Positions 259-22,665 of a stretch of 22,665 nt of DNA are shown here, in pieces. The stretch comes from a virus (lineage: Duplodnaviria; Heunggongvirae; Uroviricota; Caudoviricetes). The position numbers and the translations under genes were made by a program. The notes below the pieces were generated by a model. That model saw only the letters and a list, made by a program, of their open reading frames with translations, did not search any database and was not told the origin of the DNA. Location: positions 1 through 22,665 of IMG/VR virus record IMGVR_UViG_2744054628_000009. One strand, written 5' to 3'. Position 1 is the stretch's first letter. The number at the start of each line of letters is the position of its first letter.

Positions 259-286
259 CGTCTGACAAGCCCTCGCGTTGAGGGCT

Positions 287-2775: not shown

Positions 2776-2854
2776 TTGCCTGAAATTTATGCCGTTTAAA
2801 ATCATGACGTTAGGAGCACTGTTTTTTAACGATGGCGACAAAATGGCGGCAGCG

Positions 2855-3073: not shown

Positions 3074-3163
3074 TTTTCGAGTTCTCCCCATTTTTGCTAA
3101 ATTCACAATAATGATACCGCATTATTCCATTTTGAAAACTTAAAAGTTCTCCATTGCGAAGAA

Positions 3164-6593: not shown

Positions 6594-6846
6594 CCGTTCC
6601 TCCGTTGGTTACGCTCCACTGCGTACATGATGCCGCCTGTGTTTTGTTCAGGACCACATCCGCCACCGTGCCGTCAGTGCGCATGACACTGCGAAACTCC
6701 GACAGGTCCACATCAGGCCAGAACGGCGTATTTCTGATGATTTCCGCCTGTTCCGGTGCCTGTTCTGGCGCAACAAACTTCATGCTGCTTTCTCCTGAAA
6801 TAGAGGGCGGTGGACGGGGTTTTGATGTGGCAGTGCCTTTCGCCAC
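6586..6846 (-). pseudogene. Remnant: about 40 N-terminal codons of head completion protein gpL joined to a short 3-prime tail (probably the end of gpJ)
   Basis: The IIRNTPFWPDVDLSEFRSVMRTDGTV motif resembles the gpL N-terminus. The ORF is only 86 aa and its stop overlaps the gpI start as the J stop does in P2. All of X, lysis genes, R, S, V, W and most of J are missing between M and I. Confidence 0.4.
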
Positions 6847-6878
6847 CCCGTGCCGCCCGTGCGCGGGGGCACGTTCTG

Positions 6879-7529
6879 TCAGCGGCTGTCATTGCGCAGT
6901 CTGCGCTCCAGCTGCTGTTTGTCTTTTTTCACGCCACAGCGGGGATCAAGCTGTAACGCATGGTTGAGATGATTAAGGGCGGAAGCCGGATTGCTTTCAC
7001 TCAGGACAGCGCCAATCGCTTTATGCAGACGCGCCCGTGACTGGTCCGGCATATCCAGACCGTCTGTCAGCTCCAGCGTCTGCAACAACAGATCGGCATC
7101 AAAGCCGGTGGCGGCAAGCATTGCGCTCTGCGCGGCGTCTGCCATTTCCTCTGCCAGCACGGTCTGCACGTTGCGGTTACCCAGCGGCATCACCCAGCCA
7201 TGACGCAGGGCATGACGCCCGATCTCCAGCGCCCCGGCATAATCTCCGGCATCAATGCGCCACAGCATCACGTACATCAGCACATCATCCTGTTGAGCGC
7301 CTCCGGCAGCCAGGACACCCTCTGCCCAGGCGGCGTACTTCGGCAGCAGCTCCACCTTGATTTCCGCTTTTTTGACCGTGGACTGAACACCCTTGAGACG
7401 GCGGCGGTCTTCCGCCAGTTGCAGCAGCATCAGGTCATAGCCCGATGCGTGGCGAACACTGCCGCCCTCGCGGGCGGCCTGTTCAGCCTGAACGCGCAGG
7501 CGATGCTGCCGTGCGGGACTCAGGCTCAT
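6879..7529 (-). CDS. M: Terminase small (endonuclease) subunit gpM-like
   Basis: MSLSPARQHRLRVQAEQAAREGG...AQQDDVLMYVMLWRIDAGDYAGALEIGRHAL... matches remembered P2 gpM from residue 1; GGAG ribosome-binding site about 7 nt upstream on the minus strand. Confidence 0.75.
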   Translation of the reverse strand: MSLSPARQHRLRVQAEQAAREGGSVRHASGYDLMLLQLAEDRRRLKGVQSTVKKAEIKVELLPKYAAWAEGVLAAGGAQQDDVLMYVMLWRIDAGDYAGALEIGRHALRHGWVMPLGNRNVQTVLAEEMADAAQSAMLAATGFDADLLLQTLELTDGLDMPDQSRARLHKAIGAVLSESNPASALNHLNHALQLDPRCGVKKDKQQLERRLRNDSR

Positions 7530-9015
7530 GGATTACGCTCCGGTTTCGGCTGCGGCGGCGCTGAAATCACCAATCTGGATGTTTTCCAACCGCAATAAAG
7601 GCCCACGCCGTCAGCCGGAAAAGAATGTTTTCACCGATGAGCAGATTGAGAAGCTGGAAGAAATCTTCCATTCCTCCATGTTCAACTACCAGCGCCACTG
7701 GTGGGAAGCCGGAAAAACCAACCGCATCCGCAACCTGCTGAAGTCACGCCAGATCGGCGCGACCTTCTATTTTGCCCGTGAAGCCCTGATTGACGCCCTG
7801 CTTACCGGACGTAACCAGATTTTCCTTTCTGCCAGTAAGGCTCAGGCCCACGTCTTTAAACAATACATCATCGACTTTGCCAAAGAAGTCGAGGTGGAGC
7901 TAAAAGGCGATCCGATGGTGCTTCCTAACGGAGCCACGCTTTACTTCCTCGGCACCAATGCCCGCACGGCCCAGAGTTATCACGGCAACCTGTATCTGGA
8001 TGAATATTTCTGGATACCGAAATTCCAGGAGCTGCGCAAAGTGGCTTCCGGGATGGCTATTCACAAAAAATGGCGACAAACCTATTTTTCCACGCCATCC
8101 AGCCTGACCCACAGTGCTTATCCGTTCTGGTCCGGTGCGCTGTTCAACCGTGGACGCAACAAAGCTGACAAGGTGGACATCGACCTGTCCCACAGCAATC
8201 TGGCCCCCGGCCTGCTGTGCGCAGACGGGCAATACCGCCAGATAGTCACCGTGGAAGATGCGGTGCGCGGCGGCTGTAACCTGTTCGACCTCGACCAGCT
8301 ACGCATGGAGTACAGCCCGGACGAATACCAGAACCTGCTGATGTGCGAGTTCGTGGACGATCTCGCGTCCGTGTTCCCGCTCAGCGAACTGCAGGCGTGC
8401 ATGGTGGACAGCTGGGAAGTCTGGACCGACTTTCATGCACTGGCCCTGCGCCCGTTTGGCTGGCGCGAAGTGTGGATCGGTTATGACCCGGCAAAAGGTA
8501 CGCAGAACGGCGACAGTGCCGGATGCGTGGTGGTGGCTCCGCCAGCCGTGCCGGGTGGTAAGTTCCGCATTCTTGAGCGTCACCAGTGGCGCGGGATGGA
8601 CTTCCGCGCCCAGGCTGACGCCATCAAAAAACTCACCGAACAGTACAACGTGACCTATATCGGTATCGACTCAACCGGCGTTGGTCACGGGGTTTATGAG
8701 AACGTGAAAGCGTTCTTTCCTGCCGTCCGGGAGTTTGTCTACAACCCCAATGTTAAAAACGCCCTGGTACTCAAGGCCTACGACATTATCAGCCACCGCC
8801 GTCTGGAGTTTGACGCCGGGCACACCGACATTGCGCAGTCATTCATGGCAATCCGTCGCGCCACCACCGCCAGCGGCAACCGCCCGACCTATGAAGCCAG
8901 CCGCAGCGAAGAAGCCAGCCACGCCGATCTGGCCTGGGCAACGATGCACGCACTGTTTAACGAACCGCTGCAGGGCGAATCCGCCAATACCAGCAATATT
9001 GTGGAGATTTTTTGA
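7528..9015 (+). CDS. P: Terminase large (ATPase) subunit gpP-like, probably truncated at the 5-prime end
   Basis: Walker-A-like LKSRQIGAT; 4-nt overlap with the Q start. The M start codon abuts this ORF with no room for the divergent promoters or for O and N. The first 20-30 codons of the ORF are probably not native. True start not determined. Confidence 0.65.
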   Translation: MDYAPVSAAAALKSPIWMFSNRNKGPRRQPEKNVFTDEQIEKLEEIFHSSMFNYQRHWWEAGKTNRIRNLLKSRQIGATFYFAREALIDALLTGRNQIFLSASKAQAHVFKQYIIDFAKEVEVELKGDPMVLPNGATLYFLGTNARTAQSYHGNLYLDEYFWIPKFQELRKVASGMAIHKKWRQTYFSTPSSLTHSAYPFWSGALFNRGRNKADKVDIDLSHSNLAPGLLCADGQYRQIVTVEDAVRGGCNLFDLDQLRMEYSPDEYQNLLMCEFVDDLASVFPLSELQACMVDSWEVWTDFHALALRPFGWREVWIGYDPAKGTQNGDSAGCVVVAPPAVPGGKFRILERHQWRGMDFRAQADAIKKLTEQYNVTYIGIDSTGVGHGVYENVKAFFPAVREFVYNPNVKNALVLKAYDIISHRRLEFDAGHTDIAQSFMAIRRATTASGNRPTYEASRSEEASHADLAWATMHALFNEPLQGESANTSNIVEIF

Positions 9016-10040
9016 TGGGAAAGAGTAAGAAAAACCGCGCTGCGGCGACGAATCAGCTCAAGCATAAAAGCCAGACTTCAGCCGAAGCATTCAGCTTTGG
9101 CGATCCCGTTCCTGTTCTGGACCGCCGTGAACTGCTGGACTATGTGGAATGCGTACAGATGGACCGCTGGTATGAGCCGCCCGTCAGCTTTGACGGACTG
9201 GCACGAACCTTCCGCGCTGCCGTGCATCACAGCTCACCGATTGCAGTAAAATGCAACATTCTGACCAGTACCTACATCCCTCACCCGCTGCTCAGCCAGC
9301 AGGCTTTTTCACGTTTTGTGCAGGACTATCTGGTATTTGGTAACGCCTACCTGGAGAAACGCACGAACCGCTTCGGTGAAGTTATCGCCCTTGAGCCTGC
9401 TCTGGCAAAATACACCCGACGCGGGTTAGACCTGGATACCTACTGGTTTGTGCAATACGGTATGACAACCCAGCCGTATCAGTTCACGAAAGGCAGCATT
9501 TTTCATCTGATGGAACCGGACATTAACCAGGAGATCTACGGCCTGCCCGGCTATCTTTCTGCCATTCCGTCCGCCCTGCTCAATGAGTCCGCCACGCTGT
9601 TCCGCCGCAAGTATTACATTAACGGTAGTCATGCAGGCTTCATCATGTACATGACCGATGCTGCGCAGAACCAGGAGGACGTGAACAACCTCCGCAATGC
9701 AATGAAAAGTGCCAAAGGTCCGGGTAACTTCCGCAACCTGTTTATGTACTCGCCTAACGGCAAAAAGGACGGCCTTCAGATCATCCCTTTGTCAGAAGTT
9801 GCGGCGAAGGATGAGTTTCTAAATATCAAGAACGTGAGCCGGGATGACATGATGGCAGCACATCGCGTTCCGCCACAGATGATGGGGATAATGCCTAATA
9901 ATGTTGGGGGATTTGGGGATGTAGAAAAAGCTAGTAAGGTATTTGTGAAAAATGAATTATTACCATTACAAAAAAGAATGAAAGAATTTAATCATTGGAG
10001 CGGTGAAGAAATTATAAAATTCGAGAGATATCAAATTTAG
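9012..10040 (+). CDS. Q: Portal protein gpQ-like
   Basis: 342 aa (P2 gpQ is about 344 aa), immediately downstream of P with an ATGA overlap. Confidence 0.8.
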   Translation: MMGKSKKNRAAATNQLKHKSQTSAEAFSFGDPVPVLDRRELLDYVECVQMDRWYEPPVSFDGLARTFRAAVHHSSPIAVKCNILTSTYIPHPLLSQQAFSRFVQDYLVFGNAYLEKRTNRFGEVIALEPALAKYTRRGLDLDTYWFVQYGMTTQPYQFTKGSIFHLMEPDINQEIYGLPGYLSAIPSALLNESATLFRRKYYINGSHAGFIMYMTDAAQNQEDVNNLRNAMKSAKGPGNFRNLFMYSPNGKKDGLQIIPLSEVAAKDEFLNIKNVSRDDMMAAHRVPPQMMGIMPNNVGGFGDVEKASKVFVKNELLPLQKRMKEFNHWSGEEIIKFERYQI

Positions 10041-10041
10041 C

Positions 10042-10066
10042 AAAGTGCCTCTAAAAGAGGCGCTTT
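10042..10066. terminator. Hairpin between the convergent Q and DprA-like genes (possible bidirectional terminator)
   Basis: aaagtgcctct-aaa-agaggcgcttt: an 11-bp stem with one G-T pair, A-rich on the 5-prime side and T-rich on the 3-prime side. Confidence 0.45.
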
Positions 10067-11039
10067 AAATCAAGTCTAATGTACTCTGTTTCCCTGGCCA
10101 TTTTAGCTCTAACAAATACTCCCGAGACTCATTTATGATCATAATCACATCATCATAATCCCGTTTTGTTTTTAACGCTCTAGCCATGTTGCTCTTAACT
10201 AAATCAACTGTTCCCTCACAATTAAGATTAAGCGGATTATTAGGTAGGTGAGGTACAACCGCAAACACTGGTCTTTTCGCCTTATTTGCAAACTCAGCTT
10301 GAGTTATCGTTCCGCTATTTAACGCAGCCTCGATTAAAATTGAACCTGCAGATAATCCAACTTGTATCCGATTTCTTTGTACAAATGATTGTTTCTGGGC
10401 CGGTCGACCCATAGGATACTCAGAAATCCATGCACCACCTTTATCCAGAATCTCTTGAGCAAGTCGACTGTTTTGCTTCGGCTTAGCCTCCTCAAGACCA
10501 TGCGCCAAGACAGCAATGGTTTTTCCTTTTGCTTGTAACGTTGCCTTATGAGCATTCGCATCAGTGCCTATTGCTAACCCACTTACAACAATATACCCAG
10601 CAGACACTATTTGATTAGTGATTCGCCTCGTTATTTCTTCCCCTGCAGGGGAAGTATCACGGGATCCTACAATTGCGACACCCGGCAATTCTTTTAGTAT
10701 ACTTTTATCCCCTTTTATGTAGAGAATTGATGGTGGATTAGGAGTAAACGCTAAACTAAGAGGATAGAATTCAGACCCATATGGTATTAGCTCCACACCA
10801 TTAACATGGTGGTTCTCCAATTCAGCATTCGCTATTAGAAAATCAGTCTCAGATATTTTATCTTTTAGAAACCCGTGGCTATTAACCATCTCAGTTAAGT
10901 CGCGTATATCACGAATAACATCAAAATCAATAAGCTCAAAGAATTTCAATACACTTTGATCAGATGCTAGCTTCCCGATTTGAATAGCTAATCCAAGTGT
11001 ATTTTTTAATTCTTCTGAGTGCACTTTGCTACTCCTCAT
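10065..11039 (-). CDS. shosA: DprA/Smf-like (SLOG-fold) protein; ShosA-like
   Basis: C-terminal region VAIVGSRDTSPAGEEI...SGLAIGTDANAHKATLQAKGKTIAVLAHGLE...QRNRIQVGLSAGSILIEAALNSGTI fits the DprA Rossmann-domain pattern. Start overlaps the upstream PRTase gene by 11 nt; an AGGAG precedes an alternative GTG at 11027. Confidence 0.65.
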   Translation of the reverse strand: MRSSKVHSEELKNTLGLAIQIGKLASDQSVLKFFELIDFDVIRDIRDLTEMVNSHGFLKDKISETDFLIANAELENHHVNGVELIPYGSEFYPLSLAFTPNPPSILYIKGDKSILKELPGVAIVGSRDTSPAGEEITRRITNQIVSAGYIVVSGLAIGTDANAHKATLQAKGKTIAVLAHGLEEAKPKQNSRLAQEILDKGGAWISEYPMGRPAQKQSFVQRNRIQVGLSAGSILIEAALNSGTITQAEFANKAKRPVFAVVPHLPNNPLNLNCEGTVDLVKSNMARALKTKRDYDDVIMIINESREYLLELKWPGKQSTLDLI

Positions 11040-11604
11040 AGTTTGCAGTTTCTAGCAGAGCTAATGGCATTATAACTCCAGCTCCTGCAGACTCCAGTAA
11101 ATAAAAACACGCAGACAAACTACCGCCTGTTGTTTTAACATCATCTAGTAGTAACACATTTCGCCCCATGAGGTTACCACCCCTAACTCTGATACTAGAC
11201 ATGTGACCAGTAATTGAGCGATCTCCTCCTTCACGATGTGCGCTAGGAACAGTGCGTGTTCTTTCCAAACAGCAATCAACAATGCCCCGACGGTGAACAT
11301 TTACGATTCGCTCGGCGACCTCAATCAAAGCCGGTGAAATTCTGCCTTCAGTGTGAGATGGGACGACTGCTATCGAAAAAGGAGACTCAACAAAACGCCC
11401 ACCGCCACCTCTGATTACTAACCGCCCAACCTTATCTATAGCTAATCGAGAAAAACGGTTAATAGCCCTTTGATGATTACGATTATTTTCATCCTTAAAA
11501 TCCATCATCTGCCTTGATAGTTCATCGCTATGAGGGTTGCGCTCTCCCAAATGCCAGTAGGGGTGATACAAGCCACACGATGTAACACTTACGGGTAAAA
11601 GCAT
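11029..11604 (-). CDS. shosT: Phosphoribosyltransferase-domain protein; ShosT-like
   Basis: Type I PRTase PRPP-binding motif VLLLDDVKTTGGSL near residue 150; 191 aa; translationally coupled to the DprA-like gene. Confidence 0.65.
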   Translation of the reverse strand: MLLPVSVTSCGLYHPYWHLGERNPHSDELSRQMMDFKDENNRNHQRAINRFSRLAIDKVGRLVIRGGGGRFVESPFSIAVVPSHTEGRISPALIEVAERIVNVHRRGIVDCCLERTRTVPSAHREGGDRSITGHMSSIRVRGGNLMGRNVLLLDDVKTTGGSLSACFYLLESAGAGVIMPLALLETANYEE

Positions 11605-11761
11605 TCTTTATTCTCATGTAGTCCTAACTCAAACAATGTTAAGCGAAATGATATTTCATAGACAAACATAAAATTAAGAATAATCTCAATGATCACATTT
11701 TTGATTATGAAACAAAGCCAAGAGTTAGCGCGCGCTCGTATCCCCGCCACGCCTGCCCGCT

Positions 11762-11880
11762 TTATGCAGTGGTTTTCATGCACATGCATGACATGAGCAA
11801 AAGCCCGCCAGTTCTGGCGGATCTGAGCAAAGACGATCCTCAATCGATCATGCGATTTCATGCAGCATAGTCATGCACTG
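11762..11880. repeat. Cluster of (T/A)CATGCA heptamer repeats flanking a GC-rich inverted repeat
   Basis: TCATGCA at 11776, 11857 and 11869; variants TTATGCA at 11762 and ACATGCA at 11782; inverted repeat ccgccag-tt-ctggcgg at 11805-11820. Lies in a 528-bp intergenic region between divergent genes. Confidence 0.4.
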
Positions 11881-12132
11881 TCAAGGAAGTGAAAATCCGT
11901 ATCTGAATGGCCACTTGAAAAACGGATCATACGGGTTTACAAAGATGAATGTTCGCTGTGAACGGGAAGCGGAAGTTAACTTTCAGATAACATAATCCAT
12001 ATGCACGAGAACCTCTAAAATAGAATGGGACACCTAAGCGGGGTACTTACAACGATTCTTTCCATATTCACAGTTAACACTCTGTTTGGCGTATTTTTAT
12101 TCAAATAGCAAACACCAATAAAAGGAGTTTCC

Positions 12133-12468
12133 ATGAACAATATTCCCCCTATACCACAGTTAGGAATTTATGTCTCAAAAATCGATCCCACCCTACGTAT
12201 CACTGTAACCGATGTTGATATTGTTGATGGTGAGGATGATTCTCCTGATGATGAATTGTTTTATTTAGTCCACTGGATCGAGGGGGAAGATGAAAGTGAT
12301 ATGACAGCAATGGGATTTGAGCTAGACCCATTAGAGTGGCAGGCTTTCGTTGAATCTGAGCAATTAGTGTTTGAGCGTGATCCGTACATGGATTCAATCC
12401 CCGAAAATTCAAACTTGGCAAAGATTCGGGATTTTCTCATGAAGACTAAACAGAATGATCATTCGTAA
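12133..12468 (+). CDS. Highly acidic small hypothetical protein (111 aa)
   Basis: Strong ribosome-binding site AAAGGAG 7 nt before the ATG; protein very rich in D/E (DVDIVDGEDDSPDDELF...EGEDESD...); no family recognised. Confidence 0.6.
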   Translation: MNNIPPIPQLGIYVSKIDPTLRITVTDVDIVDGEDDSPDDELFYLVHWIEGEDESDMTAMGFELDPLEWQAFVESEQLVFERDPYMDSIPENSNLAKIRDFLMKTKQNDHS

Positions 12469-12660
12469 GTGTAAGCATCCATCAGGAAAATGGTTTTGTA
12501 AGTGAATCATCAACTTTTAGAGAGTCTCAGACACTCCCACTTCTGCTTCTGACACAAAGCGGACGATCACTTATCAAAATAACCGCCCACCTTACGCCTT
12601 ATTTCACTCATTGCCCAAACTAGCCCCCATCAGAATGAATCCTCCTGGGGGCAACATTTC

Positions 12661-12894
12661 TTAATGCAGCCAGCTGTCGTCCTCCCACACCTTCTGCATA
12701 ATTTTCATCACTTGTTTTCTTTCTTCATCCAGTTGCAGTCCGGTTAGTTCCACACCGTTAGAGCTACCTTTGCGAATGCGAATTACCGTTTTGGGATACA
12801 GGGGGCGCAGATTGCGGTAAAGCTCGGATTCAAGTGCGTCCAGGGTAGACTGGCTAATCTTCTGCTCTTTATCGATCATTATTTCAATGCGCAT
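12661..12894 (-). CDS. DinI-like protein
   Basis: MRIEIMIDKEQKISQSTLDALESELYRNL...KIMQKVWEDDSWL resembles DinI (MRIEVTIAK...). Own GAGGTG ribosome-binding site; the ORF-track start at 12966 is likely an artefactual extension. Confidence 0.7.
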   Translation of the reverse strand: MRIEIMIDKEQKISQSTLDALESELYRNLRPLYPKTVIRIRKGSSNGVELTGLQLDEERKQVMKIMQKVWEDDSWLH

Positions 12895-12904
12895 AAAAGT
12901 CACC

Positions 12905-13093
12905 TCAGCTGATGACATCCATTGAGCGGTTGTATTCGTGGCTTCTGATTTTTGCCATGAGTTCATCAGTCAATTCAGAAACCCACTGCAGAGCCAGCCC
13001 CTTCTCTTCATCACTACACTCACTAGCCGCTACAAGCTTAAGAAAAAAATCAATGCGCTGGAGCTTCAAAGACTCCAAAAAATAGTCCTGCAT
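12905..13093 (-). CDS. Small SOS-regulated protein, first gene of a LexA-controlled operon (Tum-like antirepressor candidate)
   Basis: 62-aa ORF preceded by an AGGAGG ribosome-binding site and a LexA box; its stop overlaps the ribosome-binding site of the DinI-like gene. Function inferred from position only. Confidence 0.5.
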   Translation of the reverse strand: MQDYFLESLKLQRIDFFLKLVAASECSDEEKGLALQWVSELTDELMAKIRSHEYNRSMDVIS

Positions 13094-13133
13094 CTTTCCT
13101 CCTATGACACCAAAACAATACTGTATACATAAC

Positions 13134-13153
13134 CACTGTTTATATTTACAGTA
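13134..13153 (-). promoter_or_regulatory. LexA operator (SOS box) in the promoter of the tum/dinI-like operon
   Basis: caCTGTttatatttACAGta is a perfect CTGT-N8-ACAG with an AT-rich spacer, 41-60 nt upstream of the ATG at 13093; a CTGT half-site sits at 13121-13124. Confidence 0.7.
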
Positions 13154-13245
13154 TATAATAATCTTACTGATGTAAAACGTTTTTTTACGTTCATCGGCCT
13201 GATATGCCTGGTATTATTAAGAGCACGAATTGTTAACCCGCGTAA

Positions 13246-15660
13246 TTAATACAGGTTCCGCCACTTATCATCTTCCTTCAGACGCTGGTTCCGATAGAAG
13301 ATACGCAGGCCTGCTCCTGACGGAATACTGCCGCCGCGAAGGAGCAAATCGACTTCTTTCTCGCTGCCATCAAATCCCCTGGACTTCAGTTCATAGACGA
13401 GCTGCTGTCGCTGATGGTCTGTAATTCGCTGTTTGTAGTCTTTACGCCGTTTCGGTTTCACCTGGCGTAACCTTGCAGCCAGTTCCCGGCGCTCTTTTTT
13501 GCTCATACTGTGCAGGTAATCGTGCAACTCCTTGTCATTCATACGGGTAATATCCGTTCTGGAGTCCCCATCAGCTGATTTGTCTTTCCCTTGTTGGTTC
13601 AAATTTTCAGCAAGGGGACAGTTATTGCCACGAGTCCAAGGGGCGCAAGCGCCCTGGTCGGCTGCCGCCTCCTGAACGTCAACGACCTTACGAACCATTT
13701 TCCATTTCATTGCATGAGTGCAGATCTTGCCCTGTACAATGGGTGACCAGATGCCATAAATACGAATACCGTGATCGCCATAAGCGGTCGGCTCTTCGTT
13801 AATTTCATAAGCTGTTCTGATAAGGTGATATTTGCGGGGAACCAGTACGCCGCCCTGCTTCATGATGTAGGTGGCAAAACAGCCAGCATCAGCGGCAGCC
13901 AGGATGGCATCAAGGCGCGGGTCATCCAGTACCGGCGCACCTGCTTTTTTATCACCCTGTTGCCTTGCCGCCTGACCAGCCAGCAAGCGAAGTTCACGGT
14001 ACGCCTGACGCCCCGGAATACCAAAGAAGCGGAACTGCTGAACACGATGCAGAGACGCCCAGGCATTAACGTATTCGGCGTTATCACGCAGGGATTTACC
14101 CGTTTCCTTGCTGATCTCGCCAGCCAGACCACGTCCGTCAATGTTCTTACTGATGTATTTCGCGATGTAGCTTGTCGGCGTTCCTTTGCGCGGGTTTATC
14201 AGCTCAGACTTAAAGCGTGGACCCGTGTTATTGCCCAGTTCCTCGCGGTCTTCACGGATGGCAAACTTACGCAACAATGCAGTAATGGCGCGGCGGTCTT
14301 TTTTGCGCATGAAACACATGAGATGCCAGTGCACAGTACCGTCATGGTGCGGCTCAGCCACCCGCACGCCATACCAGCGCAACCCGGCTTTGTGCATAGC
14401 CTTACGAAATGCAGCAAACATGCCGACCAGATAATCGCTGCTTTGTCTTACCGTCGCATTTGTCCAGGTTGGGTTTGGTCTGCCGTTATTGAGCGTAGAA
14501 TGGAAACGTGACGGACAGGTAATGGTGTAGAAAACGGCGCAGTCACCACGCATTTCCGCGATAAGCTCCAGACCTTTAACACAGGCCATCATCTCATTGC
14601 GGCGGTGCGCCGGGTTGCTGCTGCTGGCGTTTACCACGTCTTCCATATCCAGCGTGTCGCCGTCTTCGTTCACCAGTTCATGAGAACGGAAAAACTCCAG
14701 CGACTTGCGGCGCTGCTCACGTTTATGCGTCACTGCTTCATAGCTGACATAGGGAGATGCTTTTTTGCTGACCAGGCAGACAGCACGCAACTGCTCTTCC
14801 CGCCATTCGCAACGTATCTTCCACAATTTTCGATACCACCAGTCGGCGCAAAGCATACGTGCCAGCGAACCCGGTATGAGTTCATAGGGCACGGGTTTGC
14901 GGCGGTTTCTTTTCCGACGGAGTTTCTCAAACGCAGGCGGGATAACATCCAGACGCAGGGTTTCCGCTGCCACCTTTTCCCATGTCTTGCGGATTTCTTC
15001 TGGCTTAACGTCATCGGAGGCATACAAATCACCACAAGCGGCCTCAAGACACATGCTCATATGCGCTGCTACCAAGGTGGACAGGCGTTTTACCTGATCC
15101 TGACTCATTTCAGGTAGGATCAGCAGGCCCTCAAGCCCTTGATGGCTTGCCATAAAACGGAAAGAAGCGGATAGCTGACTGTCGCGTACATACTCCAGTC
15201 GCTCCAGACATGACTTAATCGTCTCACGCAAATAGCGGGAATAAGCCTTTGGCCTGCCCAGGCTGCTGAAGTATTCGATACGTTGCATCAGCGGCTTGCT
15301 GATGTGGGTGGGCTGGGCGCTGACGTCCGCCAGAATGACCATGTCCGGGTTAAAACGCTGCTGCTCATGCGCCAGCTTTGCCCGACTAATGAGATTATCC
15401 TGCTCCATTTCGCGCTGGACAGGATCACGGGATTCATTAAAGAAATAACGCTCCCAGACCTGCTCACTCAGTGCATCGCGGCGCAGCTGTTCCTGCTCGT
15501 TATCGGCAGCGTACAAAGTGATCATGTTTGAAAGTGCAGACTCCGGCGCAACTTCCGCCGGGTCCAGATAAGGGTTAATGGCCTTTTTCGGGCCGTTCCA
15601 TGAAAATGCTGCAGCGGCCTCGTTAAAGCCGCTAGAGTTGCTCATATCATCATGACTCAT
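13246..15660 (-). CDS. A: Replication initiation protein gpA-like (rolling-circle nickase)
   Basis: 804-aa ORF at the end of the early operon with an ATGA overlap to the upstream dam gene; sequence recalls P2/186 gpA. Confidence 0.8.
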
Positions 15661-16513
15661 ACACGCACCTCGTACACAGCAGAACTATCCACGCCACGCG
15701 AAGGATCAAATCCCACCCAGCAGCGCGCCCCGGAAACAGCAATGATTTCTGTTGCAGATTTACTCTCGCCAGCCGACACGCCGATGCTGCGTTTTGCCTT
15801 GATGTAGTGGTGAGTGAAATTGCGATACAGCGAACGAATCAGGGATGTGTCACTGTTAGAAACAATGACCGGATGACCTTCAGATGATCGATGTTCAAGA
15901 ACGGATGCCAGGTGATACTGGTCATCCTCAGTGAAGCCATCAGTGTGATAGCCGGAAAACGTACCGTCATAAGGCGGATCGCAATACACCACATCCCCCG
16001 CCTTCAACATCGCCAGCGTTTCATCAAAGCTGGCGCAGATAAACGTTGCTCGCTGGGCTTTTTCTGCAAATTTGCGAATTTCTTTTTCAGGGAAATACGG
16101 ATTTTTATAATTCCCGTAGGGAATGTTGAATGCCCGCTCTTGTTATAGCGACATAACCCACGGTAACCATGACGATTGAGATACAGGAAATATACCGCTT
16201 TCATGAAATCAGTAATTTCAGTGGAGTAATTAAACTCCTGCCTTATGTTGTAATAAGCCACCTCCCTGTTTGCTTCCTCAAATAAAGCTCTGGCACGAGA
16301 TATAAACGCCTCGCAATCAGCAGCAACCTTTTTATAGAGGTTGATTAAATCAGGATTAATATCCGCAACAAGATAGCTGGGGTAATCCGTCTCTATCATC
16401 ACAGCACAAGAACCCGCGAAAGGTTCAACCAGTCGCGGGCCAGCAGGAAGGTATTTTTTCAGTTCTGGCATAATGGCGGTTTTATTACCCGCCCATTTCA
16501 GGATGGTGCTCAT
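15657..16513 (-). pseudogene. dam: DNA adenine methyltransferase (Dam-like) with a frameshift near 16129-16131
   Basis: N-terminal ORF has motif I ([11 protein letters not shown]) and ...[17 protein letters not shown]; the -1 frame continues [38 protein letters not shown]...VVYCDPPY (motif IV). One base missing in a short homopolymer. Confidence 0.8.
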
Positions 16514-16737
16514 ACAGCACCTCCGTTGTAATGTTTGCCTTTCAGCTCTGCGATTTCCTGACAGGTAATGCAAAGCTGCACACCCGGAATGGCGCGACGT
16601 CGTGCTGGCGGAATTGGTGCTTCACACTCAATGCAAAGCACGCGGGATACGCCCGGCGTTTTGGCGCGGGCAGCACGGATATGACGCTGGCGTTCTTCTT
16701 CAACGCGCTGCTGTACGAGATCCATTGCATCAGCCAT
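16510..16737 (-). CDS. TraR/DksA-family C4 zinc-finger protein
   Basis: C-x2-C ... C-x2-C pattern ([26 protein letters not shown]); AGGAG ribosome-binding site; ATGA overlaps with both neighbours. Confidence 0.7.
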
Positions 16738-16970
16738 CAGTGGATCTCCTGCGCTTCGTTCTGGATTGCTTCAGCAGTCACACGCAGCAGTTCTGCCGCT
16801 TCGACGTGGTTTAGCTGGCGGGATGTGATATGACACGCTAGGCTATCAAGGCGAGCTGCCATTGCTTCAGCCCTTGCCCGGCGTTCTTCCAGACGAGCCT
16901 CTGTCAGTAAAATATTAAGCCCTGCATCATCCGGTCCGGTTTTAGTCGTGAGGGTTTCAATATTACGCAT
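16737..16970 (-). CDS. Hypothetical early-operon protein
   Basis: AGGAGA ribosome-binding site 7 nt before ATG 16970; stop overlaps the start of the TraR-like gene. Confidence 0.5.
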   Translation of the reverse strand: MRNIETLTTKTGPDDAGLNILLTEARLEERRARAEAMAARLDSLACHITSRQLNHVEAAELLRVTAEAIQNEAQEIH

Positions 16971-17037
16971 AATCAATTCTCCTGAATTTAGATAAAGGGA
17001 TGCCTGGCGGGTTTACGCCATGAATTTCATTAGTTGG

Positions 17038-17379
17038 TTAATTCGGCATGGTTAGCCGTCTGGGAAATAAGCTCACCACTGCACGAAAATGATTCATTGC
17101 TTTAATCAGCTCCCGCTTTTCGTCAGTGGTCAGCTCATTAATGCTGATGCTATGACGTTCAGCTGGAATTTTTGCCATAAAGAATATGGCAGCCAGTGCC
17201 CGTTTATTTTGTTCATTATTGATATCCCGTGGATCACGCATATCTTTAATAAACCGCTCAAGCTCTGACTCAATATTCAGGCCAAAAACTTTCGCTCTTA
17301 ATTCCGCAATATGATTAAGTCCATTCAGGCGTTCACCGGGGCTTAATGGAACAGTCGCCGCAGCGCCTTCAATAGCCAT
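17038..17379 (-). CDS. Hypothetical early-operon protein (113 aa)
   Basis: GGGGGAA ribosome-binding site 5 nt upstream of ATG 17379; lies in the cII-to-A early operon. Confidence 0.5.
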   Translation of the reverse strand: MAIEGAAATVPLSPGERLNGLNHIAELRAKVFGLNIESELERFIKDMRDPRDINNEQNKRALAAIFFMAKIPAERHSISINELTTDEKRELIKAMNHFRAVVSLFPRRLTMPN

Positions 17380-17543
17380 TGGTTCCCCCGTTTTTTCGTT
17401 GATAGTTCTGCCAGCAATTCATCTTGTGAACGGCACGGATGCCAGCGTTTACCATCCTCACCCATGATCCAGCCGTGACCGTAGTGCATTGCCGGACTTT
17501 GTTTTACCAGCAGCGATGCAAATGATGGTTCTTTCGTCAGCAT
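17343..17543 (-). CDS. Hypothetical early-operon protein (66 aa)
   Basis: GAGGTG ribosome-binding site overlapping the cII stop; ATG at 17543; the longer ORF-track version (start 17573) overlaps cII. Confidence 0.5.
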   Translation of the reverse strand: MLTKEPSFASLLVKQSPAMHYGHGWIMGEDGKRWHPCRSQDELLAELSTKKRGNQWLLKALRRLFH

Positions 17544-17550
17544 AAGCACC

Positions 17551-18066
17551 TCACAGCAAACCGAATGAAGCACCGAGGCCAGTCACGGTATCAACTGCAC
17601 TCGCCATCGCAGGATTAGCCTGTAAACGGGCCTGCAATGAAACAGCAGCCAGCGCCATCAGTCGTGTAACAGAGTTAATGCTGCTGATCGCATCACGACG
17701 GCCTGCACTGGTTTTTACATCGCCAGAAACCGCACCTGCCGCGACACGCCCTATCTCTGCAGTTGCACTCATGACGTAATGCGGCAGTTTCTCTTTTGCC
17801 ACCTCATTAATCGGTACACATGGCAGGCAGTGAATCTGTGCCAGAAAGCCATCTACCAGCGTTGAATCTTCAGTCAGATCGGTAAGCAGCCAGATTTCTG
17901 GCGCATTGAGCTGATGCGGTTGATCTGGGTTGAGTTTGTTTCGCAGAGTCTGGACATTCATTCCTGCACGTTCTGCCAGCTTCGCCATATTGTGACGAAG
18001 TGCAAAAGCTCTACAGGCTTCATCAAAATGCGGGTGTTTGGAAACTTGGTAATCAAACATGGTCAA
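17551..18066 (-). CDS. cII: Phage 186 CII-like lysogeny-establishment activator
   Basis: [47 protein letters not shown]... closely matches remembered 186 CII; 171 aa versus about 169 aa. Confidence 0.8.
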
Positions 18067-18092
18067 TGCCTCTGATGTATTTCAGAATCGAA

Positions 18093-18314
18093 CTAATTAA
18101 GGTTTAGATTGCATTCTGAAAGCGCATCAACGGTCATGGCTGCTATGTTGATCATCACTTTTTCGCGTTTTTTATCTTTCCGCAGACGGTGACGGATAAG
18201 ACGTCCATCAGCCAACATGTCATTGATAGTATCGATGGATAGCCCTGTCAGCTCGCTATAACGTTCAATAGTCACATGAGGCGTGGTAAGAGTGATTGAA
18301 ATGTTAGGTTTCAT
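18093..18314 (-). CDS. apl: Apl-like excisionase / transcriptional regulator
   Basis: 73-aa basic protein that is the first gene of the lytic operon, divergent from cI, as in phage 186. Confidence 0.65.
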
Positions 18315-18386
18315 GATGCAACATTCCTCGTTTAATGTTGATTAATCAGGACGAATACGGATCGTTTGTATTTTGTGAACATCATA

Positions 18387-18415
18387 AACATACGATCGCA
18401 TAGTGAAATCGTCAA
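18387..18415 (-). promoter_or_regulatory. Candidate lytic promoter pR driving apl-cII
   Basis: On the minus strand: TTGACG (18410-18415), 17-nt spacer, TATGTT (18387-18392). Flanked by inverted gtgaac (18379-18384) / gttcac (18424-18429), a possible operator. Confidence 0.5.
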
Positions 18416-18439
18416 GACAAAAGTTCACTTGGAGTGACC

Positions 18440-19009
18440 ATGAATTTGGAGAAAGGCGGACGAGGCGCTATAGAGCGCATGGTAGAAGCATATGGCTTCA
18501 AGACTCGACAGGCGTTGTGCGATCACTTAGGAATCTCTAAAAGTACTCTCGCCACACGCTATATGCGTGACTCATTCCCTGCTGAATGGGTAATCCAGTG
18601 CGCACTTGAAACGGGCGCCTCGCTTAACTGGCTCACGACCGGACATGGTTCAAAGCAAACTTCAGGTAATACAAATACTATGGAAGTCGTTAAATATGTA
18701 TTATCTGATGGAACCTTGCAGGAAGATGGTTTTTATATTTTCGATAAAGAATTTCTACCATCTACGCTCAAAAATCCGTTTGTAATCACCGATAACAATT
18801 CCGTTTTTATTTGCGATAAAGAGTTTAACGATATTCGTGACGGCAAATGGGTAATAAGTATTGATGCCGAAGTAACAATCCGCGATATCACTCGTTTACC
18901 TGGTGGAAGAATCTTAGTTGAAGGTGGAAATAGGGCTTTCGAATGTAAAAAAGAAGAAATTGAAATTATTGGAAAAATTATAAGCATAACAGTTAAGTAC
19001 TTTGAGTAA
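18440..19009 (+). CDS. cI: 186-type CI immunity repressor
   Basis: N-terminal HTH motif AIERMVEAYGFKTRQALCDHLGISKSTLATRYMRDSFPAEWVIQCALETG plus a CI C-terminal-type domain. GGAG at 18431-18434 precedes the ATG at 18440; an alternative in-frame GTG is at 18434. Confidence 0.75.
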   Translation: MNLEKGGRGAIERMVEAYGFKTRQALCDHLGISKSTLATRYMRDSFPAEWVIQCALETGASLNWLTTGHGSKQTSGNTNTMEVVKYVLSDGTLQEDGFYIFDKEFLPSTLKNPFVITDNNSVFICDKEFNDIRDGKWVISIDAEVTIRDITRLPGGRILVEGGNRAFECKKEEIEIIGKIISITVKYFE

Positions 19010-19059
19010 TATAGGAATGTTTTTATGCTTGGTAAAGCATTTGTTGTGGTGTAAAAAAT

Positions 19060-19983
19060 ATGTCAACTCAAAAATTAAAATTTAGCCATATCAAAAACGA
19101 TCTGAAAGCAATAGTTATGCAGAATCGTGGAGGGCAAAAAGTTATTGAGCGTATACTCCTAGCCTATGGCTTCAAGTCACGACAGGCATTATGTAATCAT
19201 CTAGGTATTTCCCAAAGTACTATGGCCAACAGATATGCACGTAATACCTTTCCTGCAGATTGGGTTGTTATATGTTCCATAGAAACAGGAGCATCAATTG
19301 AATGGTTAGTTCTTGGTTCAGATACTGCTCCTTCATCAAAGCAATATTCTGAAAAACATGCCGTTAATGGCCTTTGCAATGAAGTATACATTCCCACTAT
19401 AAAGTTCGATAATGAAAAACTCATGAATTTTAACCGAGGGGGTAAGGCAACAATAGAACGAATTGTCGAGGCTTACGGTTACAAAACGCGCCAAGCATTA
19501 GCTGATCACCTAGGTATTTCAAAAAGCACATTAGCCACACGATACATGCGTGACATTTTTCCTGCAGACTGGGTTTTGCAGTGTGCAATAGAAACGGGCC
19601 ATTCTATTGAATGGATTTCATTTGGTACAGGAGAAATGAAAAACGCAAAAAATAAAGATACTTTAACATTAGTGAAAAAAGTATTAATCAATGGCAAGTT
19701 AATAAATGATGGCTCATATTTATTTGACCCATGCTTTCTACCTTCCAATTTAAAAAATGCATTCGTAGTATCTACCGAAGACTCTGAATTAATATGTGAA
19801 ATAGGTTTTAAAGATGTACATGATGGTAAGTGGCTAGTAAATATTGATGGAGAGAATTCATTTAGAATGATAACTCGACTACCTAAAGGACGAGTTTATA
19901 TTTCATCCCAAAATCACTCTTTTGAATGTTCGCTTACAGACATTGAGTTTATTGCAAAAGTTATTATAAGTTGTTTACATTAA
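19060..19983 (+). CDS. CI-repressor paralog with two tandem N-terminal HTH domains and a CI-like C-terminal domain
   Basis: Two HTH copies (about aa 22-85 and 127-190) each resemble the cI N-terminus; the second is roughly 85% identical by eye. The C-terminal part aligns with the cI C-terminus (LPSNLKN..., DGKWL.NID..., ITRLP.GR). AT-rich. Confidence 0.65.
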   Translation: MSTQKLKFSHIKNDLKAIVMQNRGGQKVIERILLAYGFKSRQALCNHLGISQSTMANRYARNTFPADWVVICSIETGASIEWLVLGSDTAPSSKQYSEKHAVNGLCNEVYIPTIKFDNEKLMNFNRGGKATIERIVEAYGYKTRQALADHLGISKSTLATRYMRDIFPADWVLQCAIETGHSIEWISFGTGEMKNAKNKDTLTLVKKVLINGKLINDGSYLFDPCFLPSNLKNAFVVSTEDSELICEIGFKDVHDGKWLVNIDGENSFRMITRLPKGRVYISSQNHSFECSLTDIEFIAKVIISCLH

Positions 19984-20008
19984 GTAAATTTTTCATGGAG
20001 ACTTCATA

Positions 20009-21526
20009 GTGAAATGTGGTGATTGTAATTGGAACTGGGATGAAGAAACTACCTTTATATTAGACGACGAAGAGGAAATTCTTTCCAAAGACAAACTTAA
20101 TCGGAGACACTATGCAGAATATCTATATTTTTATCTTAAGGAAAAGGGGAAAAAGAACAACACGGTAATCAACCTTAATGCAGAATGGGGAGCTGGTAAA
20201 AGTTTTTTCATAAAGAGATTTTATAACTCAATAAAAGATGCACACCCATGCGTTTACATTGATGCCTGGAAGCAAGACTTTTCTGATGATGCATTTTTAA
20301 CCCTTTTTTCTTCTTTGTCACAACAATTGCAAACATATGCAGGAAAACTTGATGCTCGATTGATACAAAGCGGCCATGCTATCGGACGCTTTACAAAAGG
20401 TGTTCTACCTGAAATCATATCTGGCCTAATCAAGACTTATGCAGGAGTAGATAACGTAGGTGATATAGCCAAAGAAGCCTCATTAATAATGCTGAAGGAA
20501 CACCAGGAAAAACTGAAGAGCATTAAGGTATTAAAAAAAGAACTAACGTTATGGTCTAGGTTGGCATATGAAAATAGTTTTTCATATCCTATATTTATCT
20601 TTATAGATGAATTAGACAGATGCAGGCCAGATTATGCAATTTCTCTTTTAGAGATTGTTAAACATATATTCGATATTAAAAATTTTGTCTTTATTATTGC
20701 TACTGACACAGATCAATTACAACATTCAATCAAGAATGTTTACGGTAATGATTTTTCCGCAAATGACTATTTAGGCCGTTTTTTTCATAGAAGATTTACT
20801 TTAAAACAACCTGAACTTAAAGATTTAATTAATGGTGTTGTTGGTGATTATATTGGTACCGATTTTGAAAATATCACATCAAAAACATACCCACTAACAG
20901 CAACATTAGAAGACTTTTCAATAAATATTTCCAACGTATTTGAAGCATTTGGGTTAAATCTAAGAGACTCAATCCGAAATACTGAAAGGTTAATAGACAT
21001 TCTTAAATCTGATTTAGTCAAAAAGAAAGTAGATTATATTTTTATAATTTCGCTAATGATTATATATGATAAGGATCGTCAAATTATAGATGGACTAATT
21101 GGTCGAAGAAATGCAGCACAACGTTTCACTGATTCGATAAAGCAAAGCTCCAATTTAAAAGGTGTTTCTCAAGCCATCCTTGAATTAAATCTTGATACAA
21201 ATCAGCAAAGAATAGGTGTCAATTATATCTATAGAACGGCGAGCAGTAGATTATTCATCTCACAGATCGAGCCCAAAATAAATTTAACATTAATAAATTA
21301 CTTAGATGTTGCATTGTATTTTATTAATAATATAAACATGCTTAAATCAAGTATAAAAAACAATGGGCAAAATTCACTAATGATTATATCTCAACAAGGC
21401 CCTATTGATGGTGATACAGCTATAAAGTATTTGCAAGGAGCCCTTATAGAGAATGGTCTGAATACATCTTTTTATGCCTTACATAATTACATTGAATTAA
21501 TTGAACTGGCCACATCATTTGATTAA
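20009..21526 (+). CDS. KAP-family P-loop NTPase (PifA-like)
   Basis: Walker A GAGKSFF (about aa 60) and Walker B IFIFIDELDRCRP (about aa 196), in the form typical of KAP NTPases; GTG start with GGAG 8 nt upstream; strongly AT-rich, 505 aa. Confidence 0.65.
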   Translation: MKCGDCNWNWDEETTFILDDEEEILSKDKLNRRHYAEYLYFYLKEKGKKNNTVINLNAEWGAGKSFFIKRFYNSIKDAHPCVYIDAWKQDFSDDAFLTLFSSLSQQLQTYAGKLDARLIQSGHAIGRFTKGVLPEIISGLIKTYAGVDNVGDIAKEASLIMLKEHQEKLKSIKVLKKELTLWSRLAYENSFSYPIFIFIDELDRCRPDYAISLLEIVKHIFDIKNFVFIIATDTDQLQHSIKNVYGNDFSANDYLGRFFHRRFTLKQPELKDLINGVVGDYIGTDFENITSKTYPLTATLEDFSINISNVFEAFGLNLRDSIRNTERLIDILKSDLVKKKVDYIFIISLMIIYDKDRQIIDGLIGRRNAAQRFTDSIKQSSNLKGVSQAILELNLDTNQQRIGVNYIYRTASSRLFISQIEPKINLTLINYLDVALYFINNINMLKSSIKNNGQNSLMIISQQGPIDGDTAIKYLQGALIENGLNTSFYALHNYIELIELATSFD

Positions 21527-21588
21527 AAGCATTGTTTGAATAAACTAAACCATACATTGACCACTGGTCAAACATACAGTTAAATTTA

Positions 21589-21612
21589 GCCCTCTGATAT
21601 GAGGGCTTTATT
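21589..21612 (+). terminator. Rho-independent terminator ending at the int start codon
   Basis: gccctc-tgatat-gagggc followed by tttatt, then ATG at 21613. Confidence 0.6.
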
Positions 21613-22665
21613 ATGGCAGTACGAAAACTCACCACAGGAAAATGGCTTTGCGAATGTTACCCCGCCGGACGTAGTGGGCGTCGTGTGCGTAAACAATTCG
21701 CCACCAAAGGCGAAGCACTGGCTTTTGAGCGTCACACGATGGAAGAAACCGAAGCAAAGCCCTGGCTGGGTGAATCAGTGGATCGTCGAACACTGAAAGA
21801 CGTGGTTGAGCTATGGTTCAAACTACATGGTAAATCTCTGACTGCTGGGCAGCATGTCTATGACAAATTGCTGCTGATGGTTGACGCTCTGGGCAATCCC
21901 CTTGCAACTGATCTAACCTCTAAAATGTTTGCCCACTATCGAGATAAACGCCTGACAGGTGAGATCTACTTCAGTGAGAAATGGAAGAAAGGAGCAAGCC
22001 CGGTCACCATTAACCTGGAGCAAAGCTATCTAAGTAGTGTTTTTAGCGAACTATCCCGCCTGGGCGAATGGTCGTATCCGAACCCACTGGAGAACATGCG
22101 AAAATTCACCATCGCAGAAAAAGAGATGGCATGGCTTACCCATGAGCAGATTGTTGAATTACTAGCTGATTGCAAACGTCAGGACCCAATTCTGGCACTG
22201 GTAGTTAAGATATGCTTAAGCACAGGCGCACGCTGGCGAGAAGCCGTAAATCTTACCCGCTCACAGGTGACCAAATACCGAATTACCTTTGTAAGAACGA
22301 AGGGGAAGAAAAACAGAAGCATCCCTATCAGTAAAGAGCTTTACGAAGAGATCATGGCGCTTGATGGGTTCAATTTCTTCACAGACTGCTATTTTCAATT
22401 TTTATCCGTGATGGAAAAAACGTCTATCGTGCTCCCTCGCGGTCAACTCACACACGTTCTGCGCCATACGTTTGCGGCGCACTTCATGATGTCGGGTGGA
22501 AACATTCTGGCCTTACAAAAAATTCTCGGACACCACGATATAAAAATGACTATGCGTTACGCACATCTGGCACCGGATCATCTGGAAACGGCGCTCCGTT
22601 TCAATCCTCTGGCAACGCTGCCAAGTGGCGACAAAGTGGCGGCAGCGGTTGGCATTACCCCGTAA
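21613..22665 (+). CDS. int: Tyrosine integrase (P2/186 Int family)
   Basis: 350 aa; C-terminal catalytic region ...HVLRHTFAAHFMMSGGNILALQKILGHHDIKMTMRYAHL with the conserved R/H/R/Y arrangement; sits at the end of the prophage opposite ogr. Confidence 0.85.
   Translation: MAVRKLTTGKWLCECYPAGRSGRRVRKQFATKGEALAFERHTMEETEAKPWLGESVDRRTLKDVVELWFKLHGKSLTAGQHVYDKLLLMVDALGNPLATDLTSKMFAHYRDKRLTGEIYFSEKWKKGASPVTINLEQSYLSSVFSELSRLGEWSYPNPLENMRKFTIAEKEMAWLTHEQIVELLADCKRQDPILALVVKICLSTGARWREAVNLTRSQVTKYRITFVRTKGKKNRSIPISKELYEEIMALDGFNFFTDCYFQFLSVMEKTSIVLPRGQLTHVLRHTFAAHFMMSGGNILALQKILGHHDIKMTMRYAHLAPDHLETALRFNPLATLPSGDKVAAAVGITP

Follow-up and report, generated by a model that had tools for sequence, protein, structure and literature searches.

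The 22,665-nucleotide (nt) stretch of DNA analyzed here in full (IMG/VR record IMGVR_UViG_2744054628_000009, positions 1 to 22,665; hereafter the window) is Escherichia coli DNA, with ybjM and ybjL at 287-2619, and carries a P2/186-like (Peduoviridae) prophage that includes ogr, remnants of tail genes, terminase, and portal, together with gpA (13246-15660), dam, DUF5347, and fil. Between the resident repressor gene cI and the integrase gene (int) of this prophage lies a second repressor gene, the subject of this study: one unbroken, ATG-initiated open reading frame (ORF) on the plus strand at 19060-19983, present in both the ORF list and the sequence itself, that encodes a 307-amino acid (aa) protein. 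This gene is a complete variant of the phage 186-type CI immunity repressor with two CI-type helix-turn-helix (HTH) domains in tandem, and it is followed by a gene for a KAP-family P-loop NTPase (Table 1). The GC content falls from ~50% to 30-37% across the resident cI, the tandem-HTH gene (hereafter tandem cI), and KAP.

Two tandem HTH domains and a CI-like C-terminal domain (CTD) had been predicted for this protein from the sequence of the window, and Pfam, profile searches, and an AlphaFold2 model all bear this out. PF07022 (Phage_CI_repr) matched two separate stretches (whole-protein E = 3.8e-56) and PF16452 (Phage_CI_C) matched residues 207-302 (E = 2.1e-25). A hidden Markov model (HMM) made from 73 single-HTH CI N-termini matched the protein twice, at residues 19-103 (E = 7.8e-35) and 122-206 (E = 5.3e-47); both matches far exceed chance, and the former places the first copy (HTH1) in the same HTH family as the second (HTH2). 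The original prediction was also essentially right about coordinates, domain boundaries (about residues 22-85 and 127-190), and linker length (~35 aa). HTH1 and HTH2 share 56% aa identity with each other, HTH1 is 58% identical to the HTH of the resident CI, and HTH2 plus CTD is 56% identical to the resident CI over 181 residues. The two copies are only ~69-71% identical at the nucleotide level (blastn self-matches) and so are not an assembly repeat, which supports the proposal of an old duplication. Furthermore, the ORF is one gene and not two genes joined over a hidden stop or frameshift: in 40 full-length homologs, colinearity extends across the linker, which contains neither a stop nor a frameshift.

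The monomer model (AlphaFold2 with a 40-sequence alignment; predicted local distance difference test score, pLDDT, 81.5; predicted template modeling score, pTM, 0.41) comprises folded domains at residues 13-90, 128-190, and 200-306 and a disordered linker at 93-120. Its CTD superposes on the CTD of 186 CI (2FKD) with a template modeling (TM) score of 0.91 and a root-mean-square deviation of 1.3 Å (Foldseek), and 186 CI (2FJR) was also the best sequence match in the PDB (phmmer, E = 1e-22). LexA and lambda CI were distant fold neighbors only (Foldseek E 1e-5 to 1e-3, TM about 0.3-0.6), and the 307-aa protein contained no match to the S24 peptidase domain (PF00717) above the Pfam threshold. Helices 2-3 of HTH2, QALADHLGISKSTLATRYMR, differ from those of the resident CI, QALCDHLGISKSTLATRYMR, by one residue. 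The tandem protein had no PADLOC match, and neither PADLOC nor NCBIfam offers a specific model for it.

A shorter, single-HTH isoform could also be encoded within the gene. An in-frame methionine at the end of the linker (Met121, 19420-19422; MNFNRGG) aligns with the start of the resident CI (MNLEKGG), and a promoter-like match in the linker (TATACA-17-GATAAT, 19385-19413) has a counterpart matching at 10 of 12 positions in the same place in locus L085 (L numbers denote the cI loci compared in this analysis). We did not adopt this internal start, as the methionine is not kept across the family and the promoter scan returned matches at background frequency.

Table 1. Features of the tandem cI gene and its surroundings (positions in the window).
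Feature	Position	Strand	Details
Whole tandem-HTH CI gene	19060..19983	+	307 aa plus stop; 2x PF07022 and PF16452; cluster P0001, 100%/near-100% identical
N-terminal extension, residues 1-21, MSTQKLKFSHIKNDLKAIVMQ	19060..19122	+	18-21 aa long; conserved in main clade of 40 homologs; modeled helix 13-20
HTH1, residues 22-90, recognition helix GISQSTMANRYAR	19123..19329	+	HMM E = 7.8e-35; helix almost invariant across tandem-HTH family
Inter-domain linker, residues 91-126, predicted disordered	19330..19437	+	pLDDT < 50 at 93-120; length and sequence variable among homologs
HTH2, residues 127-192, helices 2-3 QALADHLGISKSTLATRYMR	19438..19635	+	HMM E = 5.3e-47
186-type CI C-terminal (oligomerization) domain, residues 200-307	19657..19983	+	PF16452 E = 2.1e-25
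Left recombination junction, left edge of cI-int cargo slot	19050..19052	.	Homology switches from single-type to tandem-type loci
Right edge of cargo slot	21551		Homology of nearly all loci resumes, 62 nt before int
9-codon stump of a 63-aa Cys-rich, signal-peptide-like ORF	19026..19055	+	Full ORF 3' of cI in L157-type phages (L157 6607-6798)
KAP-family P-loop NTPase, co-inherited cargo	20009..21526	+	PF07693 E = 1.3e-45; PADLOC candidate PDC-S20 E = 7.7e-78
Resident single-HTH cI	18434..19009	+	191 aa (189 aa from ATG 18440); PF07022 and PF16452
Resident apl-cI switch, 119 nt	18315..18433	.	Same switch with same single-HTH cI in L157-type loci
cII	17551..18066	-	PF06892 (Pfam)
apl	18093..18314	-	By position and homology across loci
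Integrase	21613..22665	+	Int_N and Phage_integrase (Pfam)

The two-HTH design is a family trait, normally of the sole repressor in a group of P2/186-like Enterobacteriaceae prophages. It was present in 45 of the best 120 database relatives, all of them 290-330 aa long with two HTH matches to the HMM, from E. coli, Salmonella, Klebsiella, Enterobacter, Citrobacter, Kosakonia, Edwardsiella, and other hosts; a sequenced example is Klebsiella phage 4LV2017 (KY271398), whose "repressor protein CI" (ARB15674.1, 313 aa) is of the tandem-HTH type. We compared 160 loci from viral contigs and representative genomes, in which cI, apl, cII, KAP, and int were annotated with HMMs. Tandem-HTH cI genes occurred in 38 loci, three of which (the window, L002, and L083) represent the same element, leaving 35. 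In 34 of these the tandem gene is the only cI and lies ~88 nt from a divergent apl-cII; the remaining locus, L108, yielded no apl or cII match within the 1.4 kb of upstream sequence at hand. The original prediction regarded the tandem gene as a paralog of the resident cI, a view that does not survive this comparison: the gene belongs to a widespread class and is not a lineage-specific copy of its neighbor.

Loci of the main clade share a near-identical 88-nt switch, even though overall identity among their CI proteins is no more than about 45-62%. On the apl strand, this switch contains a match to the sigma-70 consensus at 10 of 12 positions, with a -10 of TATTCT and a -35, TTGACA, that coincides with cI codons 1-3. 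This overlap between the pR-like -35 and the first three codons (M-S-T) explains the conserved "MST" start of tandem CIs. Most of the 88-nt-switch loci also carry a palindrome, GTGAC-N7-TCAC, at -45. A search for inverted and direct repeats in three switch types returned nothing clear in the 88-nt switch, and a search for the half-sites TTCAC, GTGAA, GTGAC, and GTCAC found no consistent distal FL/FR-like sites. The 88-nt switch and HTH1 are present in many complete E. coli genomes.

As defined in this analysis from an alignment of 40 members (290-330 aa in total), the tandem-HTH subclass has an MSTxK..F.H extension, an HTH1 helix, (G)ISQSTMANRYAR, that is almost invariant among tandem-HTH CIs, a linker ending in K.P.E..IN.NQGG, HTH2, and the CTD. 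The window gene carries every element of this signature. Mean identity to ordinary single-HTH CIs is 72% for HTH2 and 61% for HTH1. What the window gene lacks is the paired 88-nt switch, of which only the TTGACA in codons 1-3 remains (ATG TCA A, read on the minus strand).

The copy in the window is therefore an orphan, severed from its native switch and placed as a second gene 50 nt behind the resident cI. A search of the whole window, with a tolerance of up to 3 and 1 mismatches, did not find the 88-nt-switch pR -10, palindrome, or 23-nt core, and the position beside a switch that is typical of 186-type cI genes, and that relatives occupy in 34 of the 35 other loci, is held here by the resident gene. 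Breakpoints were mapped by blastn of 17000-22665 against the 160 loci and by a search of 5,426 E. coli genomes with 19000-20100, and they mark the tandem cI as an additional repressor of foreign origin beside the resident one. Tandem-type phages match the window at 17000-18328 (cII and apl) and do not do so again until 19052, which is 8 nt ahead of the ATG, whereas more than 30 single-HTH, L157-type phages match 17000-19050 unbroken at ~92% identity, through apl, the 119-nt switch, the 191-aa cI, and 41 nt past its stop. All non-identical E. coli genome matches to 19000-20100 begin exactly at 19052. Since the 63-aa ORF that follows cI in L157-type phages is cut at this junction, the L157-like layout is ancestral and the tandem cI-KAP block (19051-21550) was inserted, by illegitimate recombination. 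Neither the 5,426 E. coli genomes nor 176 loci from viral contigs and representative genomes contained a parent phage with exactly this gene as its primary repressor and KAP downstream.

The block occupies a slot between cI and int that holds variable cargo. Depending on the locus, cI and int are separated by as little as 1 nt or as much as 3.3 kb, and genes in this interval encode KAP NTPases of two kinds, ATPases (OLD-like and others), ASCH-like proteins, a T5orf172-like protein, and many unknown proteins. KAP genes also occur behind single-HTH cI genes in L166, L168-L174, L112, and L115. Just 5' of int, in backbone conserved in all loci, a terminator-like hairpin (AGCCCTC-TGATAT-GAGGGCT plus a T-rich stretch; 21588-21607, plus strand) may attenuate or terminate transcription between the cargo slot and int.

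Domain comparisons show that the window gene is itself a mosaic, in which the extension, HTH1, linker, and HTH2 resemble 4LV2017/L085-type repressors and the CTD resembles that of a single-HTH CI encoded ahead of KAP. HTH1 is identical to L085/4LV2017-type primary repressors at 60 of 67 positions and HTH2 at 55 of 65, with helices 2-3 identical and 79% nucleotide identity over 19052-19627. The CTD is 40% identical to that of L085 and 67% identical to that of the single-HTH CI of L112 and L115, whose gene precedes a KAP NTPase 70% identical to the one in the window. Exchange of this kind extends to other members of the family: the HTH2, CTD, and 3' flank of the tandem cI in L084 (6378-6989) share 81% nucleotide identity with the resident cI of the window (18439-19050), so tandem and single cI genes evidently swap their 3' two-thirds.

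Modularity is also visible at the N-terminal end. Single-HTH CIs of 204-209 aa in L072, L073, L076, and L081 contain an HTH1-like helix, and others of 197-198 aa (L009 6007-6603, L127 6001-6594, and others) join "MSTSK" to the tandem-class linker end YPNEIKINPNQGG, an HTH2-like domain, and a CTD. The L009/L127-type loci have the left half of the 88-nt switch, and their CIs look like tandem CIs minus HTH1, or like the acceptor into which HTH1 went. In the L111-type and L114-type tandem subtypes, HTH1 matches the HTH and switch of particular single-HTH phages. In three subtypes, then, the N-terminal HTH goes with the adjacent switch, and the unit of linker end, HTH2, and CTD is shared or exchanged. 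This pattern fits a role for HTH1 as the operator-specific reader, though physical linkage alone would give the same result. In a neighbor-joining tree of HTH domains, HTH1 did not form one clean clade (the largest pure clade held 34 of 45), and comparison of switches and HTHs distinguished at least three HTH1 types; we therefore do not claim a single ancestral duplication.

Among 5,426 complete E. coli genomes, 17 contain the cI-tandem cI-KAP-int block at an identity of at least 99.4%. Their sources span humans, pigs, a dog, plants, and water, and one of the 17 is the reference enteropathogenic E. coli (EPEC) strain E2348/69; RefSeq names both the resident and the tandem gene "phage repressor protein CI." Each of these 17 genomes, as well as 6 contigs, has an intact tandem cI ORF. 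By comparison with the ~34-kb prophage of E2348/69 (L179, E2348/69 850000-890000), the prophage in the window is a deleted and rearranged derivative of ~20 kb that has undergone three deletions, one inversion, and a frameshift in dam. The two are colinear over 1-5641, 5639-6668 (inverted), 6661-7588, and 7586-22665 of the window, with the rearranged part at 2850-10040. Having lost about 14 kb that comprises head, lysis, and tail genes, the window prophage is almost certainly defective. An even shorter remnant of ~7 kb lies at the same ybjL-rcdA site in E. coli AF44 (L178, NZ_OZ547155.1, 17451-24366) and holds ogr, partial gpD, partial dam, traR, DUF2732, DUF5347, fil, cII, apl, cI, tandem cI, KAP, and int; its cI-tandem cI-KAP stretch is 100% identical to the window. 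Retention of the block at 99.6-100% identity in the near-complete E2348/69 prophage, the window derivative, and the AF44 remnant weakly supports the view that it is cargo beneficial to the host.

The resident cI, together with its own switch, aligns colinearly (identity about 92%) with over 30 single-HTH loci. This switch has a pR-like promoter on the minus strand (-35 at 18415-18410, -10 at 18392-18387) and a 10-nt inverted repeat (18360-18369/18388-18397), the sole one returned by the repeat search, and cII and apl form its lytic side. Several other features of the prophage were noted in passing. A DinI/Tum-like 101-aa ORF (12661-12966, minus strand) is located where phage 186 has its SOS-controlled antirepressor, Tum. 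At 10065-11604 on the minus strand, a DprA-like 324-aa protein corresponds to PADLOC ShosA (E = 2.8e-70) and its 191-aa neighbor to ShosT (E = 3.6e-14); this Shosta-like defense pair occupies a known gpA-portal hotspot, where the otherwise near-identical L002 prophage has GAPS4-type genes. In the dam gene (15657-16573, minus strand), loss of one nucleotide from a run of A near 16128 has left two ORFs, of 117 and 189 aa; the gene is intact (285 aa) in E2348/69 and L002.

The explanation we prefer, held tentatively and at slightly less than an even chance, is that tandem cI is a co-transcribed second repressor that gives its lysogen heterotypic superinfection immunity. The 50-nt gap between cI and tandem cI contains no convincing promoter or terminator, and the only terminator-like site before 21588 is weak and lies inside the tandem cI ORF. 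Tandem cI would thus be expected to be co-transcribed with the resident cI from the lysogenic promoter, because it has no upstream promoter of its own and no terminator separates the two genes. Its product would oligomerize through the 186-type CTD, bind the pR region of incoming phages with the 88-nt switch, and block their lytic development. Such phages are the most likely target because both HTHs are 85-90% identical to those of their repressors, with the same helices 2-3, and because the 88-nt switch is absent from the prophage itself. Phages of this type do circulate in E. coli. The lysogen would in this way gain a second immunity specificity, carried as defense cargo. The original prediction had suggested that two DNA-binding domains per subunit might alter operator spacing or specificity, a suggestion that fits the tandem-HTH family in its native context.

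Several observations count against this role. Because neither the repeat search nor the half-site search gave a clear operator, the GTGAC-N7-TCAC palindrome is held as a conserved candidate operator only. Recognition helices vary very little throughout the CI family, such that immunity groups cannot be read from helix sequence alone, and the near-identity of HTH2 helices 2-3 to those of the resident CI makes binding to the resident switch possible. The Shine-Dalgarno sequence upstream of tandem cI is poor (GGTG at -13). KAP is found elsewhere without tandem cI, and the repressor may be a mere fellow traveler. Finally, substitutions among near-identical copies (window versus L002, L083, and L163-L165) are too few for a meaningful dN/dS ratio, and those in tandem cI are mostly nonsynonymous (3 of 4 in L083, and 4 of 7), as they are in KAP (e.g., 6 of 11 in L083); none of the 19 in the integrase gene is nonsynonymous. 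These counts do not demonstrate purifying selection on tandem cI since its capture, although none of its changes falls within either HTH domain.

The substitution pattern bears on the alternative that tandem cI is an inert hitch-hiker: an intact leftover of the recombination that brought in KAP, or that swapped the immunity region, without a selected function (whether expressed or not) and heading to decay. We consider this rather unlikely, although the mostly nonsynonymous changes, set against a strongly constrained int, speak for it. Moreover, KAP lies directly behind single-HTH cI genes in many loci and the tandem CTD is closest to the products of those very genes, as if a cI-KAP unit had moved wholesale, and a difference of at most 0.6% among all 17 genomes points to an event so recent that intactness says little. 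Even so, the ORF is intact in every complete genome and contig in which the block was found, it has kept 100% identity in both the 7-kb remnant and the deleted prophage of the window, where most phage genes have been lost and dam is frameshifted, and both HTH domains are free of substitutions. Alternatively, tandem cI may modulate the resident switch, binding 18315-18433 through HTH2 or in mixed CTD oligomers and thereby strengthening, buffering, or altering repression and induction. The two repressor genes share one operon, HTH2 matches the resident HTH at 48 of 65 positions in addition to the single-residue difference between QALADHLGISKSTLATRYMR and QALCDHLGISKSTLATRYMR, and the CTDs agree at 50 of 103. 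However, L157-type phages operate the same switch with a single cI alone, the same HTH2 helices occur in 88-nt-switch repressors that work with a different switch (making helix identity an unreliable guide to operator choice), and at 49% CTD identity the formation of mixed wheels is uncertain; modulation of this kind is unlikely. The same considerations apply to the earlier idea that the protein might titrate or mimic the resident repressor, which the shared HTH2 helices 2-3 make possible but which is not the best-supported interpretation.

A further proposal, that tandem cI is a dedicated regulator or sensor of the adjacent KAP NTPase in a two-gene defense module, draws on the 26-nt gap between the genes, their co-inheritance in all copies, and the match of KAP to the defense candidate PDC-S20. 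Yet homologous KAP genes (46-71% identity) stand behind ordinary single-HTH primary cI genes in the loci listed above, other tandem-HTH cI genes are followed by unrelated cargo, and the interval between tandem cI and KAP holds neither a promoter nor an operator; PDC-S20 is a candidate system of one gene, and tandem cI itself has no match in PADLOC. As KAP homologs follow ordinary cI genes, we rejected this coupling, whose probability we judge to be very low. An artefact, in which adjacent cI genes were fused by sequencing error or a segment was duplicated in assembly, has next to no probability and is already refuted by the recurrence of the same ORF in 17 complete genomes and several metagenomic contigs, by the colinearity of 40 homologs from many genera, and by copies only ~70% identical in nucleotide sequence.

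Taken together, the modular domains, the native switch, and the cargo slot could be read as parts of one picture, which is possible though doubtful: tandem CIs would be a distinct version of the 186-type switch in which HTH1 sets immunity, and these modular repressors would be traded as cI-int cargo. Each subunit of the wheel may bear two DNA readers on a flexible tether. HTH1 covaries with the local switch and, in three subtypes, resembles the HTH of the single-HTH repressors that own the same switch type; HTH2 plus CTD would serve as a scaffold open to exchange. Such modularity of the DNA-binding part could allow entire repressor genes to be severed from their switch and traded as anti-phage cargo. 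If so, the copy in the window and in EPEC E2348/69 would be a working repressor-as-defense gene that outlives the decay of its prophage.

The CTD of phage 186 CI builds dimers and a 14-mer wheel, and this wheel is a textbook alternative to the lambda switch. To our knowledge, structural and quantitative models of 186 CI all assume one HTH per subunit. A natural two-HTH class with a shorter, 88-nt switch would put those models of wrapping, looping, and cooperativity to the test, and builders of synthetic switches could draw on tandem-HTH CIs for ready modular parts. The orphan copy, retained in the lysogenic operon of E2348/69 and even in decayed remnants, would offer a simple example of anti-phage cargo in the form of a repressor and, if the repressor is indeed cargo, would extend the gene list of P2-like defense hotspots. 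Even if the copy is inert, the locus records domain-level reshuffling of 186-like immunity regions. The tandem-HTH class appears to be uncharacterized: databases annotate its members merely as CI, a survey of P2-like phage CI proteins recorded spacers of 88-125 nt and not the tandem-HTH architecture, and the searchable literature yielded neither a description of a double-HTH 186-type CI nor a published analysis of the double HTH in 4LV2017-type proteins.

Of the systems with which the window gene can be compared, coliphage 186 is the best known. Its CI (2FJR, 2FKD) has the same HTH family and C-terminal fold, and the same neighbors (apl, cII, fil, and int) surround its gene and tandem cI. In contrast, 186 CI is a 192-aa protein with one HTH, whereas the tandem CI has two HTHs per chain and an N-terminal extension; the tandem class has a native switch of 88 nt versus 119-125 nt in the single-HTH relatives compared (window-type and L111-type), with the pR -35 inside the cI start codons, and the window gene is second in its operon without a switch of its own. 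Klebsiella phage 4LV2017 CI and its relatives in E. coli and Klebsiella prophages (P0002-P0045) have the same tandem-HTH layout, with HTH1 ~90% and HTH2 ~85% identical to the window copy. Those proteins are the sole repressor beside apl-cII, whereas the window copy no longer has an 88-nt switch and carries a CTD of another kind (40% identity).

A parallel for the proposed outcome comes from mycobacteriophage Mcgavigan, in which a horizontally acquired, Bxb1-like second repressor is reported to confer heterotypic immunity (PMC12700041). There, too, a prophage gained a repressor of another immunity type by recombination, and the window gene would have the same effect. The two cases differ in protein family, host, and phage group, and the window repressor is of the tandem-HTH type and lies in a defense-cargo hotspot. 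A cI-int defense hotspot is known in K139-like Vibrio phages and an integrase-primase hotspot in P2-like phages (PMC9122126, Rousset et al. 2022; PMC13586616, NAR 2026). The passages retrieved from these two reports mention neither a repressor as hotspot cargo nor a cI-int slot in E. coli 186-like prophages. The P2-like defense hotspots resemble the window slot in their variable, low-GC cargo, their fixed edges between core genes, and their candidate defense genes, such as KAP and OLD-like ATPases. Against this background, an orphan repressor copy carried as hotspot cargo is a new twist on the 186 CI family.

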